Positions 16,891 to 31,919 are shown, numbered from the stretch's first letter. The stretch: DNA of 64,000 nt from Parcubacteria group bacterium (GCA_041659685.1 JBAZXV010000002.1:39527-103526), one strand, 5' to 3'. Numbers and translations: made by a program. The notes: generated by a model not told the origin, from the sequence alone.

Positions 16891-17814
16891 ATGGACATAA
16901 AATCATTAGAAACTATGCAAGACATAGATTTTCTCCAATATACGGCGAAGCGGATTTTTGATTTGCTGGATATAAGCGAAAACACCCGCGAAGACTATAA
17001 GTCGCGGGTTTATTTGTATTTGCGATTTGTTCAAGAAAACGGATACAACTTTAACAGCTTTCTCGACTTCAAAAGGGAATTGGAAAAAAGAACGGATTTG
17101 AGCACGGCGACAAAAAACAAATACTTGGCGACGGCAAAGATATTTCTCAAGGAACTGAATCGGCAAGGAATTATTCCCGCTGACATTACGCAAAATATAA
17201 AAACCTTCAAGCAAAGCAAGAAGCATAAACGGGAAGGCTTGAATGATGGTGAAATAAAATTGCTGGTTGATAGGTTCAAGCAGTTGCCAGCCACATCCGA
17301 AAGCACCCGTCTCAAAGCTATTTTAAGTCTGTTGATTTTTCAGGGGCTTCGCCAGATTGAAATTGTAAGGCTGGATATAAAGGATTTAGACTTCACGGCA
17401 AAGATGGCTTTCGTGCTAGGCAAAGGAAGGGACGACAAGGAATCGATAGATTTGCATCCTGAAACAATCAGGAATCTCAAGGAATACCTCAAAACAAACA
17501 AAATAGCGGACGGCGCGTTATTCACAAATAGAAGCAACAATGGAAAGGGTAAAAGAATCACGACCCGTGCTTTACGCGGTATAATCAAAACCATCCTTAA
17601 AGATTTGAAAATTGACAAGACTACGCACGGCTTCCGCCATTATTTCACTTCGAAGCTCATTGAGACTTACAAGGGCGATTTGCTGGAAGTTGCCCGCTAT
17701 ACCCGCCATAAGAGCCTTGAAATGTTGCAAGTCTACAATGACAACATCAAGCGCAAAGCCGATTTGCCGAGATATTATGAGACTTTCGGGGGCATAAAGT
17801 TATCAAGCGATTAG
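16891..17814 (+). CDS. Tyrosine recombinase XerC/D-like integrase (intact paralog of the pseudogene at 1-657)
   Basis: LRQIEIVRLDIKDLDF (box I region) and HGFRHYFTSKLIETYKGDLLEVARYTRHKSLEMLQVYND (box II with catalytic Tyr). About 70% amino-acid identity to the fragment at the window start. Confidence 0.85.
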   Translation: MDIKSLETMQDIDFLQYTAKRIFDLLDISENTREDYKSRVYLYLRFVQENGYNFNSFLDFKRELEKRTDLSTATKNKYLATAKIFLKELNRQGIIPADITQNIKTFKQSKKHKREGLNDGEIKLLVDRFKQLPATSESTRLKAILSLLIFQGLRQIEIVRLDIKDLDFTAKMAFVLGKGRDDKESIDLHPETIRNLKEYLKTNKIADGALFTNRSNNGKGKRITTRALRGIIKTILKDLKIDKTTHGFRHYFTSKLIETYKGDLLEVARYTRHKSLEMLQVYNDNIKRKADLPRYYETFGGIKLSSD

Positions 17815-17840
17815 TTTGAAATAAAAAGTAAAATAAAAAT

Positions 17841-18242
17841 ATGTTCTACGAAACATTCAGTTGGTGGGGATTGTTAGTTGTTTGCGTTGCGCTGGGATAT
17901 TCGCAGCAAATCGGAGCTTACGGCAGGGGACGGAAAAGCACGAAAATAGAAAACGTTTCCAATTTGCTGATTGTTATCGTATTCGTTGTCTCTTTTTTCA
18001 TAAGCGGTGTTTGGGGCGGAGTATTTCTTGTTTTGGCTTTCATTGTGGTAAATTCGACCATCACAAAATATATTATAAAGGCGACATTCCAAAAATCAAT
18101 CCGCTATACGCCGTTGGATAGGGAGGAAGTGCAAAGGCAGGTTATGGATGAGTTTATGGAGAAAAACAAAAATGTCGGCGATGGGTTCAGTATCGTGGAT
18201 GTTGAGAGGGAAGTAAGGAGGAGATTGAACATCAAAGATTGA
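17841..18242 (+). CDS. Small integral membrane protein (about 3 TM), hypothetical
   Basis: Hydrophobic helices WWGLLVVCVALGY, LLIVIVFVVSFFISGVWGGVFLVLAFIVV. Confidence 0.4.
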   Translation: MFYETFSWWGLLVVCVALGYSQQIGAYGRGRKSTKIENVSNLLIVIVFVVSFFISGVWGGVFLVLAFIVVNSTITKYIIKATFQKSIRYTPLDREEVQRQVMDEFMEKNKNVGDGFSIVDVEREVRRRLNIKD

Positions 18243-18271
18243 ACGGATTTCAGCCTTGAACTTCCGATAAC

Positions 18272-18330
18272 TATAATTACAGGAAATAGAAAAATATGAC
18301 CAAATGGTCATATCCAAAACACGGAAAAAC
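18272..18330. repeat. Integrase-proximal att-like site, copy 2, with perfect palindrome ATATGACC-AAAT-GGTCATAT (18294-18313)
   Basis: Homologous to 677-740. 8-bp perfect inverted arms separated by 4 bp. Confidence 0.5.
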
Positions 18331-18476
18331 GAAGCGAGCGGAAGCAAAGAAATAATTTTTTCGACACGCAAAACAAACCCGACCATCACCCCCCCACCCC
18401 CGTCTTGCCAATTAAAGTAGTATGTCGACGCTTGCCTCGCGCAAAAATAAAAAGACCTAAAAAATAAAATAAGAAA

Positions 18477-19148
18477 ATGAACAGAAAAATAAAAAGGTTT
18501 TTCAAAAGGCACTGGATAGAGATAATCATCCTCGCGGGAATTTATGCAATAGCGTTCGACAACAGGATTCCTTCGGGATTGGAATACAGACTGGGAAGAG
18601 GATATTTCGTTCCTTACGACAGCCATTTCCTTTTTTGGGTGAAACGAGGAACGCTCATAACTACGCGGGAATTGAGGTATTGGGCGATTATCTCGCCTTT
18701 GCAGTATGTTTTTTTGGCACTGGGACTAGTATTGCTTTTCAGGAAATACGTTCTGCCTTCGGTGAAGAAAGAGGGGCAAAAAAGAATCGTGCTTGTAGAC
18801 GACGAACAATTTATGCTGGATGTGTATAAAAATAAATTTCAAGAAAACGGCTATGCGGTTAAAACATACTTTATCCTTGAAGATGATTTCATAAAAGAGA
18901 TAGCCGACTTCAAGCCCGATGTTATTATGACCAACATCACGATGCCAAACATTGACGGCTTCCAATTCACGGAAAAACTCAAAAATAACGAAATGACCAA
19001 AAACATCAAAGTCGTCGCTTTAACCACTTGCAGCAGCCGTGAGGATAAAAGGAAAGGCTTTGCAGTCGGTATGGAGGATTATCTCGTCAAATCCAAATTC
19101 ACCCCCGATGAGGTTGTGAGGGAGATTGGCGATATTTTAAGGGATTGA
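18477..19148 (+). CDS. Membrane-anchored response-regulator receiver-domain protein (atypical: Asn at the phospho-acceptor position)
   Basis: Two N-terminal TM helices, then REC-domain motifs RIVLVDDE, ...PDVIMTNITMPNIDG, ALTTCSS, YLVKSKF. The position aligned to the phospho-Asp of DxxMP is N in MTNITMP. Confidence 0.65.
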   Translation: MNRKIKRFFKRHWIEIIILAGIYAIAFDNRIPSGLEYRLGRGYFVPYDSHFLFWVKRGTLITTRELRYWAIISPLQYVFLALGLVLLFRKYVLPSVKKEGQKRIVLVDDEQFMLDVYKNKFQENGYAVKTYFILEDDFIKEIADFKPDVIMTNITMPNIDGFQFTEKLKNNEMTKNIKVVALTTCSSREDKRKGFAVGMEDYLVKSKFTPDEVVREIGDILRD

Positions 19149-19313
19149 AATGCAGGAGTGTGAGAGATTATAATATCACCACGCCACCACCTTGTTATTA
19201 TGCAACTGCCTTGCGAAAAAAGAAAAAGACCCCTCAAATAAGCGGAAAAACTTTACTTTTCGCGGTTTTCAGAGTAGAGTGGAAAAGGAAATGGTTGAAA
19301 TAAAAAGGAAATT

Positions 19314-20798
19314 ATGCCCAAAATATCGCTTAAAGAGCTGGAGTCTTTTCTTTGGAAAAGCGCTGATATTCTTCGAGGAAAAATCGATTCCAGTGATTAT
19401 AAAAAATACATTTTCGGACTGCTTTTCTATAAGCGGATAAGTGATGTTTGGCTTGAAGAGCACGAGGAGTTTGCGAAAGAATATAAAAACACGGGCGCGG
19501 AAGAAGAGCCTTTTCACCGCTTCCAACTTCCCGAAGACGCACGCTGGGAAATTATTCAAAATGCTTCGCAGGAAATTGGCGTGAAACTCGACAAAATTTT
19601 TGACAAACTCACCAACGCCAACAGCCCGAAACTCGACAAAATTTTCGACGACCTCAACTTCGCTGATGCCGACCGCTTCCCGAACGATGTTCTTCAAAGA
19701 CTGATAAACCATTTTTCGCAATACAATTTCGGAAACACCTATATCAACTCGGACATTCTCGGCGACGCTTACGAATATCTCATCAAGCACTTTGCCGCCG
19801 ATGCGGGCAAAAAAGGCGGCGAGTTCTACACCCCGCGCGAAGTGGAGCGAGTAATAATCCAAATTTTGAAGCCCCACGAAAAAGACCATATCTATGACCC
19901 CACTTGCGGAAGCGGTGGTTTTTTATTGGAAGCCTATCATTTCGTCAAAGAAAAATACGGCAAGGAAGCGACGAGAAAAATATATCTTTATGGGCAGGAG
20001 ATGAACATCGGCACATACGCCATCGCTAAAATAAATATGTTTCTTCACGGGCTGGACGGCTCGGATATCAGGCGAGAGGACACTTTGCGAGAACCGCTTT
20101 TTAAAGACGAACTGGGCAACCTCAAGACTTTCGATATTGTCGTAGCTAATCCACCCTACTCAATCAAAGAATGGGCGCACGAACTTTTCGAAGCCGACAA
20201 ATTCGGCAGAAAAGACGGCTTTGACACCCCGCCCAGAAAAAACGCCGACTATGCTTTCGTCCTTCATATGATTGCCTCACTCAACAAAAACGGCAAAGCG
20301 GGAATCGTCCTGCCGCACGGCGTGCTTTTCCGAGGCGGAGCGGAAGGAAGAATCAGAAAACAGATAATCGACAAGGATTTGTTTGAGGCGATTGTGGCGC
20401 TTCCAGCAAAACTTTTCTATGGCACGGGCATTCCCGCTTGCATTTTGATACTGAATAAAAATAAGCCGAAGGAGCATAAAAATAAAATCTTGTTCATCGA
20501 CGCGGAAAAGGATTATCTTGAAGGCAAAAATCAAAATAGCTTGCGGGAGCAGGACATTGAAAAAATCATCAAAGCCTTTGACGGCTACAAGGATATTGTG
20601 AAATATGCGCGTGTTATCGGCTATGAGGAACTGAAAGAAAATGATTTCAATCTCAATGTGCGGCGTTATGTCGAAAATGGCGAAGATGAAGAAAAAATTG
20701 ATGTGAAAAAAGTTTGGGCAGAGCTCAAGGAGCTTGAAAAAGAGCGGGAGAAAATCGATGGGGAAGTGGCAGGGTTTATAAAAGAATTAGGATATTGA
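19314..20798 (+). CDS. hsdM: Type I restriction-modification methyltransferase subunit HsdM
   Basis: N-terminal HsdM_N-like LWKSADILRG. Motif I DPTCGSGGFL. Motif IV VVANPPYS. Confidence 0.9.
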   Translation: MPKISLKELESFLWKSADILRGKIDSSDYKKYIFGLLFYKRISDVWLEEHEEFAKEYKNTGAEEEPFHRFQLPEDARWEIIQNASQEIGVKLDKIFDKLTNANSPKLDKIFDDLNFADADRFPNDVLQRLINHFSQYNFGNTYINSDILGDAYEYLIKHFAADAGKKGGEFYTPREVERVIIQILKPHEKDHIYDPTCGSGGFLLEAYHFVKEKYGKEATRKIYLYGQEMNIGTYAIAKINMFLHGLDGSDIRREDTLREPLFKDELGNLKTFDIVVANPPYSIKEWAHELFEADKFGRKDGFDTPPRKNADYAFVLHMIASLNKNGKAGIVLPHGVLFRGGAEGRIRKQIIDKDLFEAIVALPAKLFYGTGIPACILILNKNKPKEHKNKILFIDAEKDYLEGKNQNSLREQDIEKIIKAFDGYKDIVKYARVIGYEELKENDFNLNVRRYVENGEDEEKIDVKKVWAELKELEKEREKIDGEVAGFIKELGY

Positions 20799-20799
20799 A

Positions 20800-21057
20800 A
20801 TGGGAAAAGATTATAAGCTTGAAATATCGGAATCAATAAAACTTGACGACTGGTCAAGAAATTTAGGCAAGTCGGGAGAAAAAGTTAAAGGTAAGCCCAA
20901 AAGGGAAATTGAGCAATATGTCGGGAATAGAGATAAGAACGTCGTTTCGGAATTTGAAAGATTGAGAGAAAAAAACAAAAAAACGAAAGTGATTCATAGG
21001 TTATGGAGAAGATTTGGGAATATTTTCAAAAAAGTTCACGAACACGAAAAAGAATAA
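20800..21057 (+). CDS. Small basic hypothetical protein (85 aa) within the Type I R-M operon
   Basis: Start adjoins the hsdM stop. No motif. Confidence 0.3.
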   Translation: MGKDYKLEISESIKLDDWSRNLGKSGEKVKGKPKREIEQYVGNRDKNVVSEFERLREKNKKTKVIHRLWRRFGNIFKKVHEHEKE

Positions 21058-21066
21058 ATTAACAAT

Positions 21067-21564
21067 ATGTCGGACGATAATAAAAATACTAAAGATGAGG
21101 AAATAAAAGAAAGAATAAGAGATGAAGATTTCAAAGCTTTGTGTAAGCAAAGAGAATCTCTTGATAAAGCGAGAATCCAAATGTCCAATGTCTTCGACAA
21201 GTATCTTCTAACTTTTTCGACTGGTGGTTTATTTTTGTCGGTTAGTTTCACAAATACGATTATAGGGAATGAAATAAACCAGAAGAATCTTTTGTCTATA
21301 GGCTGGATATTTTTGATAGTATCAATAATTTCAGTTTTATTTTCTTTCAATTTTAGTGAATATGCTCACGAAAGGCATATACAAATAGTCGATGCTCTTA
21401 TCAAAACCAAACGAAAAAAGAATAGCGAAGAAGGAGTGAATATAATTGTGAATATGGAAAATTGTTGGAAGAAGCCCTTGTTTATTTTTAGGTGGCTTGC
21501 GATTTTTGCTTTTATAAGCGGGATAATAATATTAAGCAGATTTTATTTCTTAAACATAAAATAA
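21067..21564 (+). CDS. Hypothetical membrane protein (about 3 TM) within the Type I R-M operon
   Basis: Charged N-terminus then TM helices (GGLFLSVSF..., IGWIFLIVSIISVLF, WLAIFAFISGIIILS). Confidence 0.4.
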   Translation: MSDDNKNTKDEEIKERIRDEDFKALCKQRESLDKARIQMSNVFDKYLLTFSTGGLFLSVSFTNTIIGNEINQKNLLSIGWIFLIVSIISVLFSFNFSEYAHERHIQIVDALIKTKRKKNSEEGVNIIVNMENCWKKPLFIFRWLAIFAFISGIIILSRFYFLNIK

Positions 21565-21750
21565 TGACAAATCAACCAAACGAGAAAAAAAGACCGACGG
21601 AAGAGCCTAAACCAGAGCCCTCCATCCCAGAAAGAGAAATTCCTGATTCTCCTCGCAGAGGGAGCGAACCACTCACGCCTGGAAGAGATGATAAAGGGCT
21701 GAATCCAAATGACATTTTTCCCGTTGAGGGAGGAGATAAAAAATAGATTT

Positions 21751-22989
21751 ATGTCAAAAGTCAGAGAAAAGCTAAAAGAAGAATGGATAAGAGTAAAGCT
21801 GGCAGATATAAGCCAGATAAAGAGAGGAGCATCTCCAAGACCAATTGGCGACCCTCGATATTTTTCAGATAAAGGAAGAGGTTGGATAAGAATATCCGAT
21901 GTATCAAAATCATATAAATATTTGAAAAGAACTAAACAATATTTATCTGAACTAGGAGAAGAGAGAAGTGTGAAGGTAGACAGAGGAGATTTAATTATGA
22001 GTATATGCGCTACGGTTGGCAAACCAATAATGATAAAAATACCAGCTTGTATTCACGATGGTTTTGTTTTGTTTGACAAATTGCATAAAAAAAAAGTTGA
22101 TACAGAGTTTCTTTTTTATGCTTTGCTAAATTCCGAGAATACATTTTTAGGAAGCGGGCAAACTGGCTCACAGAAAAACCTAAATACTACAATCGTAGGA
22201 AATACAGAAATTTTATTGCCTCCTATTTACAAGCAGAAAATAATCGCTGAAATTTTATCGAAGGTTGACGAGGATATCGAAAAAACGTGTGAGGTGATAA
22301 AAAAGTCGGAAAAAATAAAGAAGGGTTTAATGCGAGAACTTTTTACAAAAGGAATCGGACATAAAAAATTAAAAAAAACAAAATTGGGAATGATTCCTGA
22401 AGAGTGGGAGGTTTTATCACTAGGGGAAATGGGAATCTTTTCAAAAGGAAAAGGAATTTCAAAAAAAGAATTGATACCGACTGGTTTACCCGCAATACGA
22501 TACGGGGAAATATATACCAAGCATAATTTTATTATAAAAAAGTTTTATTCTTTTATATCTAAAAAAACAGCAAGTGAGAGCATTTCTATAAAAAAAGGCG
22601 ATATTCTGTTCACTGGTTCAGGAGAGACTCCAGAAGAAATTGGTAAATCTGTTGCATATTTAGGTGATGAGAAGGCGTATGCGGGGGGTGATATTATTAT
22701 ATTTTCGCCAAGTAAAGGCAACAGCCTCTTTTTGAGCTACCTCTTTAACAGTCCTTTGGTTAGAAATGATTTAACGAAATTGGGTCAGGGAAATTCAGTA
22801 GTGCATATGTATAAGGGGCTTCTGGAAAAAATAAAAGTTGCTATACCAAATATTGATGAACAAAATAATATCGCTGGAATCATTTCAAAGATTGATGAAA
22901 AAATTGATGGGTATAAAAAAACAAAGTCTAAACTTGAAACCCTCAAAAAAGGATTGATGCAGGATTTATTAAGTGCAAAAAATTTATGA
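21751..22989 (+). CDS. hsdS: Type I restriction-modification specificity subunit HsdS (two target-recognition domains)
   Basis: Canonical N-terminus EEWIRVKLADISQIKRGASP and central conserved LPPIYKQKIIAEILSKVDEDIEKT, with a repeated C-terminal LETLKKGLMQDLLS. The start is chosen at the ATG preceded by a GAGGGAGGAG Shine-Dalgarno sequence. The ORF track's alternative start is 21709. Confidence 0.85.
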   Translation: MSKVREKLKEEWIRVKLADISQIKRGASPRPIGDPRYFSDKGRGWIRISDVSKSYKYLKRTKQYLSELGEERSVKVDRGDLIMSICATVGKPIMIKIPACIHDGFVLFDKLHKKKVDTEFLFYALLNSENTFLGSGQTGSQKNLNTTIVGNTEILLPPIYKQKIIAEILSKVDEDIEKTCEVIKKSEKIKKGLMRELFTKGIGHKKLKKTKLGMIPEEWEVLSLGEMGIFSKGKGISKKELIPTGLPAIRYGEIYTKHNFIIKKFYSFISKKTASESISIKKGDILFTGSGETPEEIGKSVAYLGDEKAYAGGDIIIFSPSKGNSLFLSYLFNSPLVRNDLTKLGQGNSVVHMYKGLLEKIKVAIPNIDEQNNIAGIISKIDEKIDGYKKTKSKLETLKKGLMQDLLSAKNL

Positions 22990-24053
22990 AGAAGTATTTA
23001 TTCATCGATACAAATATATACATTCAGTGCTGCTTATTGGAACTAGAAGGAGATAATCTGGACACACTTAATGATTTAGAGAAGCTGTTGGAAAAAAATA
23101 AAGTGAAATTATTACTGCCCGAAGTGGTTGAGTTGGAATTTTACAAAAGGATAGAAGAGAAGATGGAAGAACTTAAAAATAAAATAGGAAGTTATAAAGA
23201 AAGCATCAACAAGGGAGATTTGGATAAAAAGATAAAGAAAGACCTGATAAAAAAATTGGGCGAGTGTATGAAGGATAGGGAAAAGAATACCGAAAAGGTA
23301 AAGAAGAAAATGGAAGAAATTTTTGAAAACAAAAAGTTTACAATCAAAAAGAATCTAGAAATAAACGAAAATAATTTAATAAACTCATACAAAACATTTT
23401 TATCTGGGAAGAAGCCATACAAAAAGGAAGGGAAAGGAGAAATACAACCAGATTGTTTAATTATTGAAACACTCGTCTCGTTCTTCAATGGAATCAGAAA
23501 ATACGATTTATTTTTTTGTAGTTCCAATAAAAAAGATTTTGCTCAACATCAAGGTGATAAAAAAGATTTGATAATTCATAGCGAAGTCGCAAAAAGATTC
23601 AAAAACATAAAATACTACGAAAATTTGTTCGAACTATTAAATGCAGAATTTGGTGGACAATATTCGGAGGAATCGATAAAGGAATTGAATGAAAAAGAAG
23701 CGGATATTTTTTATACAAAAAGTCCGTCCATAGATGCACTTGCGAGCATTAGAGGAACTGAATCGCCTACGAGATTAGGGGGCTTGGCTGATTATTACAA
23801 AGAGTGTCGGGCTTCTTTTGCAGATGTCAATAACGGAATAATACCCAATTCCGCGGCAATGAGAACTGGTAAAGATTCTTTGTCTCTTTTTGATGCGTCT
23901 TGTGCAATTCCCGAAGATAGTTTTCATCACGCTAGTTTTCGCCTAATGCCGCTAAAACGCTGCAAGAAATGTGGTGAATCATATGAGATTGGAGAGAATC
24001 GTTTGGTAGACGACGGATTATGTGATAAGTGTAGGAATAAAGGGTTAATGTAA
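22986..24053 (+). CDS. PIN-like N-terminal domain protein with central coiled coil and C-terminal Cys4 zinc ribbon (inserted between hsdS and hsdR)
   Basis: N-terminus MKKYLFIDTNIYIQC is a PIN-like acidic strand. Lys/Glu-rich coiled coil. C-terminal CKKCGESYEIG...CDKCRN. The ATGA start overlaps the hsdS stop. Confidence 0.45.
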   Translation: MKKYLFIDTNIYIQCCLLELEGDNLDTLNDLEKLLEKNKVKLLLPEVVELEFYKRIEEKMEELKNKIGSYKESINKGDLDKKIKKDLIKKLGECMKDREKNTEKVKKKMEEIFENKKFTIKKNLEINENNLINSYKTFLSGKKPYKKEGKGEIQPDCLIIETLVSFFNGIRKYDLFFCSSNKKDFAQHQGDKKDLIIHSEVAKRFKNIKYYENLFELLNAEFGGQYSEESIKELNEKEADIFYTKSPSIDALASIRGTESPTRLGGLADYYKECRASFADVNNGIIPNSAAMRTGKDSLSLFDASCAIPEDSFHHASFRLMPLKRCKKCGESYEIGENRLVDDGLCDKCRNKGLM

Positions 24054-24073
24054 ATTTATTGAACGAATAAAAA

Positions 24074-24937
24074 ATGAGCGATGAGTATATGGGCATACAA
24101 GAATATTTAGATAAAATAAAAGACGAATCAGAGGAGCGTTTCAATAATTTTGATATTGAGGAAATTGGTAGCAAAAGCATTAAATATATTTCTGACAACG
24201 CGTATCTAGAAAAACCAGTATGGTTAGGAGGAGACAATAAATATGTGTGTTTGTTTATTGATTTAGATAATTCATCAAAACTATCTTTCAAAAAACATCC
24301 AGCAACAATGGCGAAGATTTATGATTATTTTACTCAAAATATAGTCAATATTATGAGTGAAGGCGGTATAAACGCTGATTATATCGATATAAAAGGCGAT
24401 GGCGCGTTCGGGATATTTGAAGGTGAAAATGCTGTTTGGAAAGCTTTATGTTGCGCAGCTACTTTTAAAACATTTTTTGATAAGTATATTAGAAAAAAGT
24501 TCCAGACTGATTCGGATATAATAAATTGTAAAATGGCGATTGATATAGATAAAATACTGGTTAGAAAGTTGGGTAAAAAGGGGGATAAAAATAATAATGA
24601 GGTTTGGGCAGGCAGGGTTGTAAATAACACTGCAAAGATTTCCTCTCTAGCAAACGAAATTTACGATAAAGATGCGGGGATAAATAAAAATAGCAGAAGC
24701 TTGGTAATAATATCGGATAAAATTTATAGCAAACTTTTTGAAAAGCAAAACTACACGATAATCAGTTGCGGTTGTGATGGAAGCGGCGTTAAGACAAATA
24801 AAGCCAATATCTGGAGGGAATACAATTGTAGCGATAATAATAATGTAAATTGTGAAAAAGTATATTATACATCAACTCAATGGTGCGATATTCACGGAGA
24901 CGAATATATGAGTGAAATTTTGAAAAAAAATAATTAA
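24074..24937 (+). CDS. Class III nucleotidyl cyclase-homology (CHD) protein, copy 1; candidate Pycsar-like pyrimidine/purine cyclase
   Basis: CLFIDLDNSSKL matches the F.DI.GFT metal-Asp strand. IKGDGAFGIFEG matches the K..GDaymavf second-Asp strand. EVWAGRVVNNTAKISSLA matches the dvwGd.VN.AaR transition-state region. C-terminal Cys-rich tail. Confidence 0.55.
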   Translation: MSDEYMGIQEYLDKIKDESEERFNNFDIEEIGSKSIKYISDNAYLEKPVWLGGDNKYVCLFIDLDNSSKLSFKKHPATMAKIYDYFTQNIVNIMSEGGINADYIDIKGDGAFGIFEGENAVWKALCCAATFKTFFDKYIRKKFQTDSDIINCKMAIDIDKILVRKLGKKGDKNNNEVWAGRVVNNTAKISSLANEIYDKDAGINKNSRSLVIISDKIYSKLFEKQNYTIISCGCDGSGVKTNKANIWREYNCSDNNNVNCEKVYYTSTQWCDIHGDEYMSEILKKNN

Positions 24938-24945
24938 ATATAACT

Positions 24946-25656
24946 ATGGGATTAAAAGAGGAGATTACGGAAAAAGTAAAAGGTTATATGGGCTCTGCCT
25001 ACGAAATTACTGATGGCAATGTTATACCCGACAAGCAAAGCATTGGTTTTGGCGCAAAAGCGAAAAGATTAAAACACGCAATAGTTATGTATGCTGATTT
25101 GAGAGGTTCGAGGGGGATATTATCTGATAATACCAAACTATTAACCTGTAGAGCGCACAAATCTTTTTTATATGCCGCTGCCAAGTGCATAAGAAATGAA
25201 GATGGTCATTTGAGAAGTTTTAACGGCGATAGCTTATTGGCATTTTTTATCGGAGAAGATGCCGCGAAAAGAGCTGTTAGAGCGGCAATGAAAATTAAAT
25301 TTGCTGTTGTGAAAATCATCAATCCAATTTTAGAGGAAAAGGGAAAGAAAAAATTAAATTTTGGAATTGGTATCGGGCAGGGAGAAATTATGGTTGTTAA
25401 GAGCGGAGTTCCTGGCGAAGAAATGTATCAGGATTTGATATGGATTGGATGGGCGACATATCACGCTTTTGAATACGGCGACAGAGCAAGGTCTCCTCGG
25501 AATATCTGGATTTCAAAAAATGTCTATAAAACTATAGAGGATGATAAGAGCTTGACTCAATCTAATGGAAAAAGTATCTGGGTTTATAATGACGACCAAG
25601 AATTTTCTTTTGGGAAAGTTAGAGTATATAAAACCAGTTATCACTGGAATATATAA
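24946..25656 (+). CDS. Class III nucleotidyl cyclase-homology protein, copy 2 (possibly the degenerate partner of a heterodimer)
   Basis: AIVMYADLRGSRGI and SFNGDSLLAFFIGED reproduce the two Asp-containing strands. The downstream G..G...w.G region is present (GIGIGQGEIMVV...DLIWIGWATYHAF), but the Asn/Arg positions are not conserved. Confidence 0.5.
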   Translation: MGLKEEITEKVKGYMGSAYEITDGNVIPDKQSIGFGAKAKRLKHAIVMYADLRGSRGILSDNTKLLTCRAHKSFLYAAAKCIRNEDGHLRSFNGDSLLAFFIGEDAAKRAVRAAMKIKFAVVKIINPILEEKGKKKLNFGIGIGQGEIMVVKSGVPGEEMYQDLIWIGWATYHAFEYGDRARSPRNIWISKNVYKTIEDDKSLTQSNGKSIWVYNDDQEFSFGKVRVYKTSYHWNI

Positions 25657-25658
25657 AT

Positions 25659-26120
25659 ATGGAGCAACTGAAATTTATTCACAACACAATAATACATTGG
25701 ATAGACAAGACTGATAGCAAAGCGAATATAATACTCGCCTTGAAGCTTTTTATTTTGGGATATTTTTTGAAGGAGTTTCATATTCAAGATGTGGAGAAAT
25801 TTAAGCAATTTATTCTATTCATTTTTTTCTTTTCGTCTGCTCTATCATTCTTTTTTGTATTGAAAATAGTATATCCAAAGCTGTCTACGGGAGAGGCAAG
25901 TTCACTTCTTTATTTTAAGCATATTTCAGATAAATACAAATTTAATAAAAAGCAGGGAGCAGCTGACTACAAAAATCTAACCCCAGATAAATTAGAGCTA
26001 GATACTATAAATCAAATAATTTCGTTATCTATTGTCGCAACCGAAAAATATAGAGATTTACAAAAAAGCATTATCCTTTTATTTGTGGAAGTTATCTCGT
26101 TAACTATTCTATTTTTATGA
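25659..26120 (+). CDS. Small 3-TM membrane protein; candidate membrane-disrupting effector of the cyclase cassette
   Basis: 153 aa. Helices ANIILALKLFILGYFL, FILFIFFFSSALSFFFVLKIV and SIILLFVEVISLTILFL. Its start lies 3 nt after the stop of cyclase 2, and its stop lies 8 nt before the hsdR start. Confidence 0.45.
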   Translation: MEQLKFIHNTIIHWIDKTDSKANIILALKLFILGYFLKEFHIQDVEKFKQFILFIFFFSSALSFFFVLKIVYPKLSTGEASSLLYFKHISDKYKFNKKQGAADYKNLTPDKLELDTINQIISLSIVATEKYRDLQKSIILLFVEVISLTILFL

Positions 26121-26127
26121 AATAATT

Positions 26128-29049
26128 ATGCGTTTCAACGAACAGCACACAATCGAAAACCACATAATCAAATACTTCAAAAACGATTTGAAGTATGAAT
26201 ATGTAAAGCCTGATGAATTTGCCGAACTTCGCGAATTTGAAAATGAATACCTTATAACCCCGCTTTTTCAAGAATCAATCAAAAAACTCAACGGCATCGA
26301 GGACGACAATCTCGTTCAGCTTCTTGTGAAAGAACTCAAGAAAATCGACAACAATGAGGAATTTCTGAATGCCTTGCGAAACGGCATAAACCGCAAAGAC
26401 CCGAAGACAAACAAGAAAACCGACTACAAAGTCATCGATTTTGAAAAGCCTGAAAACAATCGTTTCATCATCACCAACCAATTCTATTTCGAGGGCAACA
26501 CCGAAAACATCCGCCCCGATATGATGATTTTCGTGAACGGCATTCCGATTGCGGACATCGAAGCGAAAAGCCCCACGGCTTCGGCGAGCGTGAGCTGGGA
26601 AAACGCCGTCGGGCAAATCAAGCGATACGAGAATGTCGCCCCGCGCCTTTTCATCCCTAACTGCTTCAATGTCGCGACTGACGGGACGGAGGCGGGCACG
26701 AGATATGGAGCGACAAATTCGCCGATTCAATACTTTTTTCAATGGAAAGACGAAGAGAACGCCAAGAAATTTGCGGGGAATCTGGAACTTGCGCTTTGGA
26801 ATCTTTTCGACAAAAGCCAGCTTCTCGACATCCTTAAGAATTTTATCGTCTTTGAAAAAGAGGAAGGAAAAACTATCAAGAAAATGTGCCGCTATCAGCA
26901 ATACCGCGCCGCCAACAGAATCCTTAAGAGAGTGGAGGATGGGAAAAAAAGAAAAGGGCTCATCTGGCACACGCAAGGGAGCGGAAAATCTTTGACAATG
27001 TTTTTCACGGCTTGGAAACTGCGCTATGCCGAGGGGCTCAAAAATCCCAAGGTTTTCATTTTAGTTGACCGCATTGACCTGGACGACCAGATTCACGACA
27101 CTTTCACAGCCTGCGGTGGGAAAAATATCATCAGAATCACTTCAAGAAAAAAACTTGAGGAAAAAATTACCAATGACGAACGGGGAATTTTCATCACAAC
27201 CATTCAGAAGTTCGCGGAGCTGGGAAGCGGCGTTCAAAACGAGAACAGCAATCTCATCGTGCTTGCCGACGAAGCCCATCGCACGAACGAGGGCATTTCG
27301 GGAATCAACGCCCGCTTTTCCTTTCGGGACGCTTTTTGGTTCGGCTTCACGGGAACGCCGATTGACAAGACGACTCTCAACACGCATCGCAATTTCGGAG
27401 AAGAGGGAGAGCGGTATTTGGACTACTATTCAATCCAGCAGGCGATTGACGACGGCGCGACGCTGCCCGTATATTTTGAAACAAGACTCTCGAAATATTT
27501 CATAAACGAAGAAGAATTAGACAAACAATTCGAGGAACTCACGGCGGGGCTTTCAGAAAAGCAAAAAGAAGAGCTCAAAAAAACGCACGGCAAAAAGGAA
27601 GCCATCGTGAAACTTGTGAAAAGAATCAGCGCTATCGCGACCGACATTGCCGAACACTACAAAATATATGTCCTGCCGAACAATTTCAAGGCGCAAGTGG
27701 TTTGCTACGACAAAGAGGCGTGTTTGATGTATAAAACGGCTCTCGACAAAATCATTCCTGAAAACTGGTCAAAAATTATCTATTCCACGGGCGACCCGAA
27801 TATTGAAGATTCTGAAATAAAGAAACACTACACCGCCAAAGACCAGCGCCGAAATATTATCGAGGCTTTCAAGGACAAAAACCAAGAGCCGAAAATCCTG
27901 ATTGTCTGCGATATGCTTCTCACGGGCTTTGACGCACCCATCGAGCAGGTGATGTATCTCGACAAGCCGCTTTTCGACCACAGCCTCTTGCAAGCTATCG
28001 CAAGGACGAATCGGGTATATCCAAATAAAGGCTGCGGGAAAATCATCGACTATTACGGCATTACGCGAAGTCTTGAAAAAGCCCTGGATTTTGACGAGAG
28101 CATTCTTGATTCGGCGTTGATTGACATTGCGCGGCTCAAAGAGCAGTTCAAGCAAAAACTCAAAGAATGCCTCGACTTGTTCGGCGGCATCAATATCGAA
28201 GACCCGTCCCTTGAGAACTTGCGGCGGGCTTTGCGGATTTTCGCCGACAACAAAGACAAGCAGAAACTTTTTGAAAATCTGTTCGCGAAAATCAAGCTGA
28301 TGTTTGAGATAATCTCGCCCGACCCGTTTTTGAAGCCGTATATCCGCCAAGTGGAATGGCTTACGAGTTTCAGCCTCGCGTATAATCGGGAGTTCAAAGC
28401 GCCGACCGAGGAAGAAATACGGATGGAAGAATATGGCGAGAAAATCAAGCAGCTTATTCAGGAAAAAGTGGATTTGCAAGGAATCATCAGAACTTTCAAA
28501 GAAATCAGCATCACGGATTTGTATCAGATGAAGCAACTTGAAAAAATGGAAGCCGAAGACAAGGCGCGGGCTCTTGAGAAAATGCTCAAGAGCGAAATAT
28601 CGATAAACATCGAAACCAACCCGACCTATCACAAATTCAGCGAGCGGCTGGTGAAAATCAAACGGGACTTCGAGGACAATCAGATTGATTTGGACAAAAA
28701 AATTCAAGAGCTTTGGAAATTGCGGGAGGATTTGGTGGACAAGCGGGATGAAGCCAAAAAACTGGGATATAATTTACAGGAATACGGCGTGTATGTGATT
28801 TCGCAAGAGTTTCTCGAAAACATTGAAACGAACAAAGAAATAAAGCCGTTCATTCAGGATATGGTGGAGGCTATCACCGAAACTCTCGACAAGGGCTGGC
28901 AGGAATCCTCAAAGCGGGAGGAGTTCGTGAAGGAAATTAAGCGCAAACTCACAAAACTTATTCTCAAAGATTACAAAGACAAAATTCAGGTTCGGGATTT
29001 TCCGAAATATATCAACAGGATAATAGATGTTGTTCAGCGAAAATTTTGA
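26128..29049 (+). CDS. hsdR: Type I restriction enzyme R subunit HsdR (SF2 DEAD/DEAH helicase-nuclease)
   Basis: N-terminal nuclease region (MMIFVNGIPIADIEAK is a PD-ExK-like motif). Walker A WHTQGSGKSLTMFF. DEAH LADEAHRTNEG. Motif VI-like QAIARTNRV. Confidence 0.9.
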   Translation: MRFNEQHTIENHIIKYFKNDLKYEYVKPDEFAELREFENEYLITPLFQESIKKLNGIEDDNLVQLLVKELKKIDNNEEFLNALRNGINRKDPKTNKKTDYKVIDFEKPENNRFIITNQFYFEGNTENIRPDMMIFVNGIPIADIEAKSPTASASVSWENAVGQIKRYENVAPRLFIPNCFNVATDGTEAGTRYGATNSPIQYFFQWKDEENAKKFAGNLELALWNLFDKSQLLDILKNFIVFEKEEGKTIKKMCRYQQYRAANRILKRVEDGKKRKGLIWHTQGSGKSLTMFFTAWKLRYAEGLKNPKVFILVDRIDLDDQIHDTFTACGGKNIIRITSRKKLEEKITNDERGIFITTIQKFAELGSGVQNENSNLIVLADEAHRTNEGISGINARFSFRDAFWFGFTGTPIDKTTLNTHRNFGEEGERYLDYYSIQQAIDDGATLPVYFETRLSKYFINEEELDKQFEELTAGLSEKQKEELKKTHGKKEAIVKLVKRISAIATDIAEHYKIYVLPNNFKAQVVCYDKEACLMYKTALDKIIPENWSKIIYSTGDPNIEDSEIKKHYTAKDQRRNIIEAFKDKNQEPKILIVCDMLLTGFDAPIEQVMYLDKPLFDHSLLQAIARTNRVYPNKGCGKIIDYYGITRSLEKALDFDESILDSALIDIARLKEQFKQKLKECLDLFGGINIEDPSLENLRRALRIFADNKDKQKLFENLFAKIKLMFEIISPDPFLKPYIRQVEWLTSFSLAYNREFKAPTEEEIRMEEYGEKIKQLIQEKVDLQGIIRTFKEISITDLYQMKQLEKMEAEDKARALEKMLKSEISINIETNPTYHKFSERLVKIKRDFEDNQIDLDKKIQELWKLREDLVDKRDEAKKLGYNLQEYGVYVISQEFLENIETNKEIKPFIQDMVEAITETLDKGWQESSKREEFVKEIKRKLTKLILKDYKDKIQVRDFPKYINRIIDVVQRKF

Positions 29050-29606
29050 TGAAAAGGCAAATCAAGCTCAAAAACAAGCAAGTCGAATATCTCGTGCGCA
29101 AAAGCCAGCGAGCCAAGCGGTTGCGCCTCGCGGTTTATTGTGATGGGAGTTTCGTCATCACCGTTCCGCAAGGACTGGATATACCGCGCGTCGAGGAATA
29201 CATTTTACGAAAAGCCGAGTGGGTGCTGGAGAAACTCAAGATAATGAAGAAGCGAAGCCGAAACGCCGCATTCGCAAAGCACAGCAAACGGGACTATGTG
29301 AAACTCAAAGAAAAGGCTTTGAAAATCGCCGAGCAAAAAGTGGATGAGTTCAACAAAATCTACGGATTCAAATTCAACAAAATTGCCATCAAGAACCAGA
29401 AGACCAGATGGGGGAGCTGTTCAAAGAAAGGGAATTTGAATTACAACTTCAAAATTGCGCTCCTTCCCGAAAAACACGCCGACTACATCATCGTTCACGA
29501 ACTGTGCCATTTGAAAGAGTTCAATCATTCGCGGAGATTTTGGAATCTCGTCGAACGATTAATTCCCGATTTCAAGGAGAGGATAAAGGAGATAAAAAAT
29601 TTGTAA
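29046..29606 (+). CDS. DUF45/YgjP-family zinc metallohydrolase (SprT-like), commonly linked to hsdR
   Basis: HExxH motif in IIVHELCHLKEFNHS. Its start overlaps the hsdR stop. Confidence 0.7.
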   Translation: MMKRQIKLKNKQVEYLVRKSQRAKRLRLAVYCDGSFVITVPQGLDIPRVEEYILRKAEWVLEKLKIMKKRSRNAAFAKHSKRDYVKLKEKALKIAEQKVDEFNKIYGFKFNKIAIKNQKTRWGSCSKKGNLNYNFKIALLPEKHADYIIVHELCHLKEFNHSRRFWNLVERLIPDFKERIKEIKNL

Positions 29607-29612
29607 AAAAAT

Positions 29613-29927
29613 ATGAAAAAATGTCAGTTTTGTGCGGAAGAAATACAAGATGAAGCAATAAAATGCCGATTTTGCGGTAGCTTATTAAATGGAAATACAT
29701 CCGCAGAAGCCCCAGCCATTCAAGTCGAAGTTCGTCCTCCCATTAAACAATTGAAAAAGGCATTTGGTTGTATAACAGCTGTGGTGATAGTCGTTTGGCT
29801 TTTAGAAGCAATGATTTTTATTCCCTGGGCTGTATTTTCTCACTCTTTTTTTCCAATAGCACTCCTAATATTCTTTGGTTTAGCGGGATTTGGCTTAATA
29901 GCATTTTGGAAGTGGTTTTATAAATAA
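29613..29927 (+). CDS. Small zinc-ribbon plus 2-TM membrane protein
   Basis: N-terminus [25 protein letters not shown] is nearly identical to the N-terminus of the protease at 2719-4314. Two hydrophobic helices follow. Confidence 0.5.
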
Positions 29928-29941
29928 ATATCATTAACAAT

Positions 29942-30862
29942 ATGCCAATATTCAAAATTGAAAAAAACAAACTCGCGCCGATAAATGAGAAAAAAATTGA
30001 CCTTGAAAAGGATATTCAGAAAATAACCGAAGAAAATCTCGAAACAGTTTTTAGTTTGAAGTTTGTGAGTTCAGAGTTCGCGCTTCACGGCTTTCGTATT
30101 GATACACTGGCTTTTGACAATGAGGCAAAATCTTTCGTGATTATAGAATTTAAGCGCGACAGGAGTTTCAGCGTTGTTGACCAGGGTTTTGCCTATCTTG
30201 CTTTGATGGTGAATAATAAATCGGATTTTATTTTGGAGTTCAATGAAAAGACAAGCAAGAATCTCAAACGGGAAGATGTTGACTGGTCGCAGTCGAGAGT
30301 AATGTTTGTTGCAAATTCTTTCACAAATTATCAGCAAAATGCAATCAACTTCAAAGATTTGCCGATTGAGCTTTGGGAAACGAAAGTCTTCGACAACGAC
30401 ACGATTTATTTTAATCAGATAATATCTTCCAACTCGCAGGAATCAATCAACAAATTGGTGAAAAATAAGGAAATTGAAAAAGTAAGTCGCGAAATAAAAA
30501 AATACGCGATTGATGACCACTTCAAAAAGGACTGGATACACACGAGGGAATTATTTGAGGAAATTCGAGAGAAGATATTGGCACTCGACGGCAGAATCGA
30601 GGAATCCGTGAAGAAATACTATATTGGCTATAAAATAGGGTTTTATAATATCTGTTCAATTCACTCCTACAAATCAAAGCTGATATTGCATCTTGTGAGA
30701 GTTGAGAAAAATGATTTGAAAGACCCCGAAAACAAAATTGAAATTATTCCTTGGGAGCAAAGAGGCTGGGGAAAACTTTGCGGCTATACAATTTCAAAAT
30801 CAGAAGACATAGATTATGCGCTGTTTCTCATTAAGCAGGTCTATGAAAAATTTTATAAATAA
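29942..30862 (+). CDS. Hypothetical protein with PD-(D/E)xK nuclease-like core
   Basis: RIDTLAFDNEAKSFVIIEFKR has a D...E-x-K spacing typical of restriction-endonuclease-fold proteins. Confidence 0.4.
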   Translation: MPIFKIEKNKLAPINEKKIDLEKDIQKITEENLETVFSLKFVSSEFALHGFRIDTLAFDNEAKSFVIIEFKRDRSFSVVDQGFAYLALMVNNKSDFILEFNEKTSKNLKREDVDWSQSRVMFVANSFTNYQQNAINFKDLPIELWETKVFDNDTIYFNQIISSNSQESINKLVKNKEIEKVSREIKKYAIDDHFKKDWIHTRELFEEIREKILALDGRIEESVKKYYIGYKIGFYNICSIHSYKSKLILHLVRVEKNDLKDPENKIEIIPWEQRGWGKLCGYTISKSEDIDYALFLIKQVYEKFYK

Positions 30863-30964
30863 TATGAAAATATCCAAACTAAAAAAAGGAAAAATTAAAA
30901 ATCGCAGAGGACAAAACATAGCAGTTTTGTTAGAAGAAGCCGAAAATCCGAAAGGTCTGCTTTT

Positions 30965-31642
30965 GTGATGCACGGACTTGGGGGGTTCAAAGAGCAACCG
31001 CATATCGAAACTTTCGCCCAAGCCTTCAAAGAAAAACATTACACGGTCATTCGCTTTGATACGACTAATACCTTTGGCGAAAGCGACGGCGATTATCAAG
31101 ATGCCACTACAACGAATTATTATGAGGATTTAGAGGATGTTATCAAGTGGGCTAAAGCGCAAGTTTGGTATAAAGAGCCGTTTGTTTTAGCTGGTCATAG
31201 TCTGGGAGGAATATGTTCTGCTCTTTATGCCGAGAAATATCCAAAAAAAGTTAAAGCTCTCGCTCCAATATCCACGGTTGTTTCAGGCGAATTGACTTTG
31301 AAAACCGATAGGGAAGATGTCAAAAATTGGGAAAAAACAGGCTGGAGAATTTCGCAGAGCAAATCAAAGCCAGGCGTGATAAAAAGGTTGCCTTGGTCGC
31401 ATATGGGAGACCGCTTGAAATATGATTTATTGCCCAATGTGAAAAAACTCACAATGCCAGTGTTGCTCATTGTGGGCGAAAAAGATAACTCAACTCCTCC
31501 AGAGCACCAAAAGATTCTTTTTGATAAACTGCCTGGCAAAAAGGAACTTCATATCATTAAAGGTTCTGAACACACCTTTAGGGAGCAGAAACATTTGGAT
31601 AAAATAAAACAAATTTTTCTTGATTGGATTGACAAGTTATAG
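30965..31642 (+). CDS. Alpha/beta-hydrolase-fold esterase/peptidase; the N-terminal about 34 codons appear to lie in another frame (30864-30968)
   Basis: LAGHSLGG nucleophile elbow (G-H-S-x-G), catalytic His near KGSEHTF. Upstream frame-0 ORF MKISKLKKGKIKNRRGQNIAVLLEEAENPKGLLL* reads like the missing beta1/oxyanion strand, which implies a -1 shift at a T-run. Confidence 0.65.
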   Translation: MMHGLGGFKEQPHIETFAQAFKEKHYTVIRFDTTNTFGESDGDYQDATTTNYYEDLEDVIKWAKAQVWYKEPFVLAGHSLGGICSALYAEKYPKKVKALAPISTVVSGELTLKTDREDVKNWEKTGWRISQSKSKPGVIKRLPWSHMGDRLKYDLLPNVKKLTMPVLLIVGEKDNSTPPEHQKILFDKLPGKKELHIIKGSEHTFREQKHLDKIKQIFLDWIDKL

Positions 31643-31919
31643 TTTTATGGCAACCATTCGCAAAAAAGTTTGGAAGGAATACTTTGGGAAGATAATCGCC
31701 AGAGAAAAGAGATTCGAGCTTCGCTTGGCTGATTTTGAAATCAACGAGGGCGACACTTTTGTTTTGGAAGAATGGGACAATGAAAAACAGGAATACACTG
31801 GTAGGAAAACTGAAACGACTGCAACCTACATACTCAAAACCAAAGACCTGCCATTTTGGTCGCAGGAAGAGGTTGATAAGTATGGTTTTCAAATAATTCA
31901 GTTTGATATAAAAAAATAA
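31620..31919 (+). CDS. DUF3850/ASCH-like PUA-fold small protein
   Basis: TIRKKVWKEYFGKIIAREKRFELRLADFEINEGDTFVLEEWD matches the DUF3850 K.W.e.F..i..G.K.fE.R.nD pattern. Confidence 0.45.
   Translation: MIGLTSYSFMATIRKKVWKEYFGKIIAREKRFELRLADFEINEGDTFVLEEWDNEKQEYTGRKTETTATYILKTKDLPFWSQEEVDKYGFQIIQFDIKK

Follow-up and report, generated by a model that had tools for sequence, protein, structure and literature searches.

A putative two-cyclase Pycsar module and a probably separate PIN-domain gene within a Type I restriction–modification operon of a Parcubacteria bacterium

Here we analyse four open reading frames (ORFs) that lie between hsdS and hsdR, two genes of a Type I restriction–modification (R-M) operon, in a 64,000-nucleotide stretch of DNA from a Parcubacteria group bacterium (GCA_041659685.1 JBAZXV010000002.1:39527-103526). 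We refer to the whole of this 64-kb stretch as the window, and all coordinates of its features are positions within it. The four ORFs encode, in order, a PIN_12 protein (gene A), two cyclases (PycC-1, gene B, and PycC-2, gene C) and a PycTM effector (gene D). By combining profile searches, comparison with solved structures, structure prediction and an analysis of 94 related loci, we find that they very probably represent a Pycsar module and an unrelated PIN passenger inside the R-M operon. In Pycsar systems, infection activates the cyclase PycC, which makes a cyclic pyrimidine, and PycTM then damages the membrane and aborts the infection (PMC11224242; PMC9117128). The locus is Pycsar by every sequence-level criterion tested, except for the Asn/Lys pair of PycC-2. 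Whereas an original prediction, made from the DNA without database searches, had put it forward as an undescribed system, all three Pycsar genes have full-length matches among the existing PADLOC PycC and PycTM models. The system itself is known, and what the locus presents is a two-cyclase variant of it that recurs but is uncharacterised. To our favoured explanation as a whole, an R-M operon that carries a PIN passenger and a Pycsar abortive-infection module whose two cyclases would act in parallel, we assign a probability of roughly 0.6.

The Pycsar genes and their relatives

PycC-1 matches the PADLOC PycC model PDLC02369 over its full length (E value 3e-73) and, by sequence, the clade D uridylate cyclase AnPycC of Anabaena (PDB 8jsz; 6e-34); Pfam holds no match for it. 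It has the motifs FIDLDNSS (61-68), IKGDGAF (106-112) and VWAGRVVNNTAK (177-188) and keeps a complete catalytic set, with the metal Asp residues D63 and D109 and the pair Asn186/Lys190 (GRVVNNTAK). The zinc ligands C232/C234/C271/H274 align with C221/C223/C260/H263 of AnPycC in a Cys-x-Cys...Cys-x-x-His arrangement, and the UTP-pocket residues F61/K107/F112 are the equivalents of F60/K104/F109 of AnPycC, whose mutation leads to the loss of both cyclic UMP (cUMP) synthesis and defence (PMC11224242). The product of PycC-1 would most likely be cUMP.

PycC-2 matches another PADLOC PycC model, PDLC02367 (5e-63), and is far nearer to the Burkholderia cepacia cUMP synthase BcPycC (PDB 7r65; 2e-23) than to clade E (only 0.016), with a Pfam match (0.0034) that falls below the threshold. 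Its AlphaFold2 model, built with 63 homologues, has a predicted local distance difference test (pLDDT) score of 93.5 and 7r65 as its top fold match in the PDB (template-modelling score 0.88/0.91). The matches in these searches are to PycC profiles and uridylate cyclase structures. The cyclase motifs that the original prediction had seen in both ORFs are present in PycC-1 and PycC-2 alike, and its reading of two class III cyclase homologues and a transmembrane (TM) protein as a Pycsar-type module in a Type I R-M operon is borne out by profiles, PDB sequences and fold.

Class III cyclases carry a transition-state Asn and Arg at positions G+4 and G+8 after the W.G motif. PycC enzymes have Asn and Lys at these positions, as in GRAANYAAK of BcPycC, whereas PycC-2 reads GWATYHAFE, so that Tyr172 and Glu176 replace the transition-state Asn and Lys; the second cyclase had indeed been noted to lack the canonical Asn/Arg. 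Both metal Asp residues are kept (D51 and D95), in the motifs MYADLRGS (48-55) and FNGDSLL (92-98), which are followed by IWIGWATYHAFE (165-176).

Among the 120 closest homologues of PycC-2, D51, R53, S55, G94 and D95 are invariant, Tyr172 is found in 119 and Glu176 in 100, and a neighbour-joining tree places the Tyr/Glu sequences in one clade nested among Asn/Lys-bearing relatives. An exhaustive search of 1.84 billion representatives returned 932 clusters (50% identity) that match PycC-2 at E ≤ 1e-3; among the best 150 of these 932, 106 carry Asn/Lys, 11 Asn/Arg and about seven Tyr. Judged from these alignments, Tyr172/Glu176 is the mark of a small subclade and not of decay in one gene. R53, the Arg two residues after the first metal Asp, is invariant both in the Tyr/Glu clade and in its Asn-bearing relatives, some of which have Val or Ala at the Lys/Arg position, and it may substitute as a relocated phosphate-binding residue. 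The base-selecting residues Y50/D94/R97 of BcPycC correspond to Y49/N93/S96 in PycC-2 and are thus only partly kept, with Asn at the D94 position in 108 of the 120 homologues and Ser or Gly throughout at the R97 position. As D94 and R97 are replaced, we describe PycC-2 as BcPycC-related rather than as a typical clade B enzyme.

Gene D passes the gathering score of the Pfam family PycTM (PF18967; 39.3 versus 27.2 bits, 9e-10), and PADLOC PycTM models of 154-165 positions span it end to end, PDLC02364 (3e-26) over residues 2-151. Its hydrophobic segments lie at 24-42 (weak), 48-73 and 133-153, but some 60 residues, 74-132, are hydrophilic; the earlier description of the protein as almost entirely hydrophobic therefore does not hold. 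It had also been held too small for a domain that binds cyclic nucleotide monophosphates (cNMPs), which would leave the ligand sensor unaccounted for. A size of 154-165 positions is, however, standard for PycTM effectors, among them the partner of a clade D cyclase (PMC11224242); gene D has this ordinary size, so the 'missing sensor' is no special feature of the locus.

For comparison, we collected 94 related Pycsar loci (identified below by L numbers), 14 from genomes and 80 from metagenomes, and searched their ORFs with profiles from the window proteins. Gene sets were counted in the 46 non-redundant loci that are fully flanked (900 nt or more on each side), of which 16 have two cyclases and one PycTM and 30 one cyclase and PycTM. 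A Tyr/Glu cyclase accompanies PycTM without a second cyclase in 11 fully flanked loci and is paired in a similar number. In the lone loci no other cyclase occurs within up to 6 kb on either side, and clustering of all neighbour ORFs revealed no conserved extra partner gene, the neighbours being methyltransferases, helix-turn-helix regulators, recombinases and hsd genes. As Tyr and Glu are conserved in paired and lone loci alike, they are a clade trait and not complementary decay, and as the clade matches the PADLOC PycC model and occurs alone with PycTM, Asn/Lys may not be strictly required for PycC.

The partners of Tyr/Glu cyclases fall into three groups, which we denote D (the PycC-1 family), D' (more distant) and C' (Asn/Lys-bearing relatives of PycC-2, itself denoted C). 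The window has the gene order D,C,TM; the other orders are C,D,TM; D',C,TM; C,D',TM; C,TM,C'; and TM,C',C, with PycTM between the two cyclases in several loci. Paired and lone loci are interleaved in the tree, where the D-partnered L058 stands among D'-partnered loci, and D-family cyclases occur alone with PycTM in at least seven loci (L001, L007, L009-L013). The two Asp residues, the Asn and the Lys are present in every D and D' partner, without complementary degeneration. The closest relatives of all three window Pycsar genes are the triples of L015 and L027, at 74%, 62% and 51% identity.

Loci with several cyclases extend beyond uncultured bacteria, as shown by plasmid pAO1 of Paenarthrobacter nicotinovorans (L105, NZ_CP089294.1, 19271-22372), which has three cyclase genes and one gene annotated 'Pycsar system effector family protein'. 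Two of the cyclases form a BcPycC-like tandem pair, one with Asn/Lys and one with Ser/Lys, and the third, on the divergent strand, is zinc-finger D-like and annotated only as hypothetical. The literature searched, with Tal et al. 2021 outside its coverage, holds no account of a Pycsar system with two cyclases and one effector or of the Tyr/Glu subclade, and the available part of the Pucsar preprint, probed by term, makes no mention of two cyclases or a heterodimer.

The commonest neighbour of the related Pycsar modules is a fusion of a LexA-like repressor/S24 peptidase with a DNA methyltransferase, present in 19 loci. Examples are found in L058 (3786-5486, minus strand) and L102 (3240-4811, minus strand), the latter beside a PIN_12 homologue.

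The host operon and the PIN_12 gene

The Pycsar genes belong to an unbroken series of plus-strand genes in the ORF list that runs from hsdM through a YgjP-like peptidase gene (19314-29606). This operon and its surroundings comprise the following features:

19145-19174, plus strand: best sigma-70-like promoter match, upstream of hsdM (TTGAAA-18-TATAAT, 11 of 12 positions; top score in 18800-30000)
19314-20798, plus strand: hsdM, Type I R-M methyltransferase subunit (Pfam N6_Mtase 8e-114, HsdM_N 6e-27)
20800-21057, plus strand: small embedded ORF, 85 residues, Lys/Glu-rich, no family match
21067-21564, plus strand: small embedded ORF, 165 residues, hydrophobic segments 72-100 and 136-164 (C-terminal), no meaningful family match
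21709-22989, plus strand: hsdS, Type I specificity subunit with two target-recognition domains (Methylase_S 8e-33, in two stretches)
22986-24053, plus strand: gene A, PIN_12 nuclease-like protein, 355 residues (PF16289 9e-17)
24074-24937, plus strand: gene B, PycC-1, clade-D-type cyclase with a C-terminal zinc site, 287 residues (PDLC02369)
24946-25656, plus strand: gene C, PycC-2, clade-B BcPycC-related cyclase, 236 residues (PDLC02367)
25659-26120, plus strand: gene D, PycTM effector, 153 residues (PF18967; PDLC02364)
26128-29049, plus strand: hsdR, Type I restriction subunit (SWI2_SNF2 5e-70, HSDR_N 5e-35, ResIII 1e-26, T1R_D3-like 7e-20)
29046-29606, plus strand: YgjP-like metallopeptidase (PF01863 3e-43), with a 4-nt overlap with the hsdR stop

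By Pfam the Type I R-M system is complete: hsdM and hsdR are intact, and so is hsdS, in which two target-recognition domains are recognised. The original prediction had placed the four ORFs between hsdS and hsdR at exactly these coordinates, all on the plus strand; the gene spacings of 3 and 8 nt that it gave were less accurate, as the PIN gene and PycC-1 are 20 nt apart, the two cyclases 8 nt, and PycC-2 and PycTM 2 nt. Of the start and stop overlaps that it described on both sides of the block, the one between hsdS and the PIN gene exists (-4 nt, an ATGA overlap), whereas PycTM and hsdR are separated by 7 nt.

An AT-rich block in a GC-richer operon had also been described, and the GC contents of the PIN gene (33.3%), PycC-1 (31.6%), PycC-2 (37.0%) and PycTM (29.2%) do lie below those of hsdM (44.2%) and hsdR (44.9%, rather than the 48% given earlier). 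However, hsdS (33.1%) and the two small ORFs 5' of it (33.3% and 30.1%) are equally AT-rich, so that the AT-rich island extends over about 20800-26200 and is wider than the four ORFs. As marks of a mobile insert we sought flanking direct or inverted repeats and plus-strand terminators inside the operon, and found neither; the whole 64-kb window has no tRNA genes. An NCBIfam scan of six proteins (those of genes A-D and the two small ORFs) gave no meaningful match. For the two small ORFs, homologues are absent from the related Pycsar loci, and Pfam, PADLOC and NCBIfam gave no meaningful match. The promoter match at 19145-19174 is a possible operon promoter but is only suggestive, because the number of promoter-like sites equals the shuffle expectation.

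Embedding of this kind recurs. In five further loci Pycsar genes lie between same-strand hsd genes, either between hsdM and hsdS (L013 and L059, the latter with two cyclases) or between hsdS and hsdR (L035, L040 and L091), and hsd genes occur within the flanks of about eight more related Pycsar loci. Defence genes are commonly embedded in Type I R-M operons, as described in a 'guilt-by-embedding' survey (Payne et al. 2024) whose main text does not name Pycsar among the embedded systems, and TgvAB of Vibrio cholerae VPI-2 is one such case (PMC11411939). The general statement in the original prediction that Type I R-M operons host defence genes agrees with this survey and with the five further loci.

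Upstream of the operon are genes for a tyrosine recombinase (16891-17814) and a membrane-anchored response-regulator receiver protein (18477-19148), and downstream those for a zinc-ribbon membrane protein (29613-29927), a DUF5655 protein (29942-30862) and a DUF3850 protein (31620-31919). These flanks (16891-19148 and 29613-31919) look like a small island context. The pairing of hsdR with a YgjP-like gene is also seen in L059 and L091, which are unrelated Type I operons.

Gene A encodes a protein with a PIN_12 domain (PF16289) at residues 5-185, which scores 62.4 bits against a cut-off of 32 in Pfam. D8, E51 and D156 are invariant among 27 sequences, that is, the window protein and 26 homologues, and the nuclease role is predicted only. 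The conserved part of the family is the PIN domain, at about residues 1-230, and the C-terminal 120 residues are variable; at their end is a CxxC...CxxC zinc ribbon (C326/C329 and C346/C349) that is present in about half of the family. Neither Pfam nor the family alignment revealed a cNMP-binding, CARF, SAVED-like or conserved nucleotide-sensor domain in the C-terminus, and no PADLOC model matched the protein. The family is small, as its 26 homologues come from a collection of 5.8 billion proteins, and is found mostly in candidate-phyla-radiation bacteria.

Alternative readings of the locus

The original prediction had joined gene A to the Pycsar genes in a four-gene cassette, in which the PIN protein would be a second, nuclease effector of the cyclic-nucleotide signal. 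PIN domains are nucleases in many defence and toxin systems, and gene A is on the same strand and in the same operon as the cyclases, 20 nt upstream of PycC-1 and translationally coupled to hsdS. Against this, a profile search of all ORFs found a PIN_12 homologue in none of the 94 related Pycsar loci, and none of the seven contexts of PIN homologues examined contains a cyclase or PycTM gene; the variable C-terminus has no nucleotide-sensor domain. Four of these seven contexts adjoin R-M genes. In L100, another Type I operon, the homologue is placed between hsdS and hsdR, without Pycsar, and elsewhere it follows a Type IIG enzyme (L103) or Type III-like genes (L104), adjoins a LexA-methyltransferase fusion (L102) or a pair of Shedu and a Schlafen-like helicase (L095), or has non-defence surroundings (L096 and L098). 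On this context evidence we rejected the PIN protein as part of the Pycsar system, and we hold the four-gene reading to be highly improbable. As there is no Pycsar in its contexts and no PIN gene in Pycsar loci, the PIN gene is a separate passenger that favours R-M neighbours, and its product is probably a stand-alone nuclease-type toxin or defence protein in its own right. All genes of the region run in one direction and form one Type I R-M operon, which carries two independent passengers between hsdS and hsdR. The operon of L100, from a similar organism, is itself heavily loaded, with a Schlafen/AlbA_2 protein and several unknown ORFs.

For the Pycsar passenger, we favour a reading in which phage infection would activate one or both cyclases, a 3',5'-cyclic pyrimidine monophosphate would be made (in the case of PycC-1 most likely cUMP), PycTM would respond and compromise the membrane, and the infected cell would be arrested or killed. 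The module would thus serve as a backup for the co-transcribed R-M system against phages that escape restriction. The cyclases would be separately triggered, parallel synthases that feed one effector, which could widen the range of phage cues or yield more signal; for this part of the explanation, taken against a heteromer or the making of two signals, the odds seem to us even or slightly better. PycC-2 would be active alone despite its Tyr/Glu pair because its clade functions without a partner gene. Several points weigh against this account. The locus is known from sequence alone, and its host is an uncultured Parcubacteria metagenome-assembled genome. The activity and product of PycC-2 are uncertain because the transition-state Asn and Lys/Arg are replaced. 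The cyclases might make different nucleotides, given that the BcPycC pocket is only partly kept in PycC-2 and that Pycsar-related cyclases making cyclic GMP (cGMP) are reported in a recent preprint. And wherever a Tyr/Glu cyclase shares a locus with a second cyclase, that second cyclase carries the canonical Asn/Lys, which also fits a heteromer.

Such a heteromer had been proposed in the original prediction as an obligate pair. It would be an asymmetric, head-to-tail PycC-1:PycC-2 heterodimer whose competent site combines the Asp pair of PycC-2 with the Asn/Lys of PycC-1, and whose other site, with the Asp pair of PycC-1 opposite the Tyr/Glu of PycC-2, would be degenerate or regulatory, as in the C1/C2 arrangement of mammalian adenylyl cyclase. 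The residues are compatible with it, as PycC-2 keeps both metal Asp residues beside Tyr172/Glu176 and PycC-1 has all four catalytic residues, and so are the 8-nt spacing of the two genes, the canonical partner of every Tyr/Glu cyclase in two-cyclase loci and the Asn/Lys plus Ser/Lys composition of the pAO1 tandem pair. Because clade A PycC carries two consecutive cyclase domains in one chain (PMC11224242), a pseudo-heterodimeric Pycsar cyclase also has precedent. However, members of the Tyr/Glu subclade have PycTM as their sole partner about as frequently as they have a second cyclase (the 11 lone loci are about half of the fully flanked loci that carry this subclade), which makes an obligate heterodimer unlikely; moreover, Tyr and Glu are conserved across the clade regardless of pairing, PycC-1 has undergone no reciprocal degeneration, and close relatives of PycC-2 differ in whether their partner is of the D, D' or C' family and in gene order, with PycTM sometimes between the cyclases. 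The complementary catalytic loss and strict co-occurrence of a C1/C2-like pair are thus not what we see, as only PycC-2 is altered, and we consider the heterodimer doubtful. The L015 and L027 triples and the constant canonical partner nonetheless favour some cooperation, and PycC-1 and PycC-2 may form a facultative heteromer.

The cyclases could instead make different cyclic nucleotides, such as cUMP and cyclic CMP (cCMP), or a pyrimidine and cGMP, with a PycTM that takes either or needs both. Their base pockets do differ (F61/K107/F112 in PycC-1 versus Y49/N93/S96 in PycC-2), different PycC clades have either cUMP or cCMP as their known product (PMC11224242), the phage enzyme Apyc1 degrades Pycsar signals (PMC9117128), and a cGMP-making offshoot of Pycsar has been reported in a recent preprint. 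Yet cUMP is the product of every clade from A to D, and cCMP that of clade E alone (PMC11224242), PycC-1 is clade-D-like and PycC-2 is far nearer to clade B than to clade E, and we regard two signals as quite improbable; two signals, if made, would be less easily defeated by phage sponges or enzymes that degrade nucleotides. More broadly, it seems unlikely that the Tyr172/Glu176 cyclase is anything other than a conventional stand-alone synthase, be it by forming an asymmetric heteromer with a canonical PycC or by making a second nucleotide. Were this so, two-cyclase Pycsar would form a functional subtype of its own, characterised by a regulatory site or by two signals, and would be a split-gene bacterial counterpart of clade A PycC or eukaryotic C1/C2.

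Relation to known systems and implications

The clade D system of Anabaena, AnPycC and AnPycTM (8jsz; PMC11224242), likewise sets a class III-fold PycC beside a short PycTM, and AnPycC shares with PycC-1 the CxC...CxxH zinc site, the F/K/F UTP pocket, the metal Asp residues and Asn/Lys. It stands alone, whereas the window module lies inside the Type I R-M operon of a candidate-phyla-radiation bacterium and has a second cyclase, of another clade, between PycC-1 and PycTM. BcPycC, the clade B cUMP synthase, is like PycC-2 in length and fold, in its two metal Asp residues and in having a Tyr two positions ahead of the first of them, but has Asn/Lys and D94/R97 where PycC-2 has Tyr172/Glu176 and N93/S96, and it pairs with a TIR effector (PMC9117128) whereas PycC-2 is found with a TM effector.

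If the window pair heterodimerises, its nearest analogue would be clade A PycC (PaPycC of P. aeruginosa, PDB 6YII) and mammalian C1/C2, where two different cyclase units cooperate (PMC11224242); those units are fused in one chain, whereas the window cyclases are separate genes of two clades, each of which also occurs alone with PycTM. The pAO1 locus is similar in having several cyclases with one Pycsar effector and one tandem cyclase in which Asn is missing (Ser), but both members of its tandem pair are clade-B-like (DGDR pocket), its D-like gene is on the opposite strand, and it lies on a plasmid and not in an R-M operon. Other defence genes embedded in R-M loci (PrrC, TgvAB and those of Payne et al. 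2024) are, like those of the window, co-directional passengers between hsd genes; the window operon differs in holding two unrelated passengers and two small ORFs.

The basic picture of Pycsar and of Type I R-M is unchanged by this locus, which adds Pycsar to the systems that are repeatedly embedded in Type I R-M operons. The PIN_12/zinc-ribbon family, which recurs beside R-M systems of several types, is a candidate for a stand-alone defence or toxin gene. The puzzle that the locus poses is why two cyclases serve one effector in about a third of the related loci, and how a Tyr/Glu PycC works. As the cyclase is thought to be the phage sensor in Pycsar, doubled cyclases may show how a signalling defence widens its triggers or resists counter-defence.

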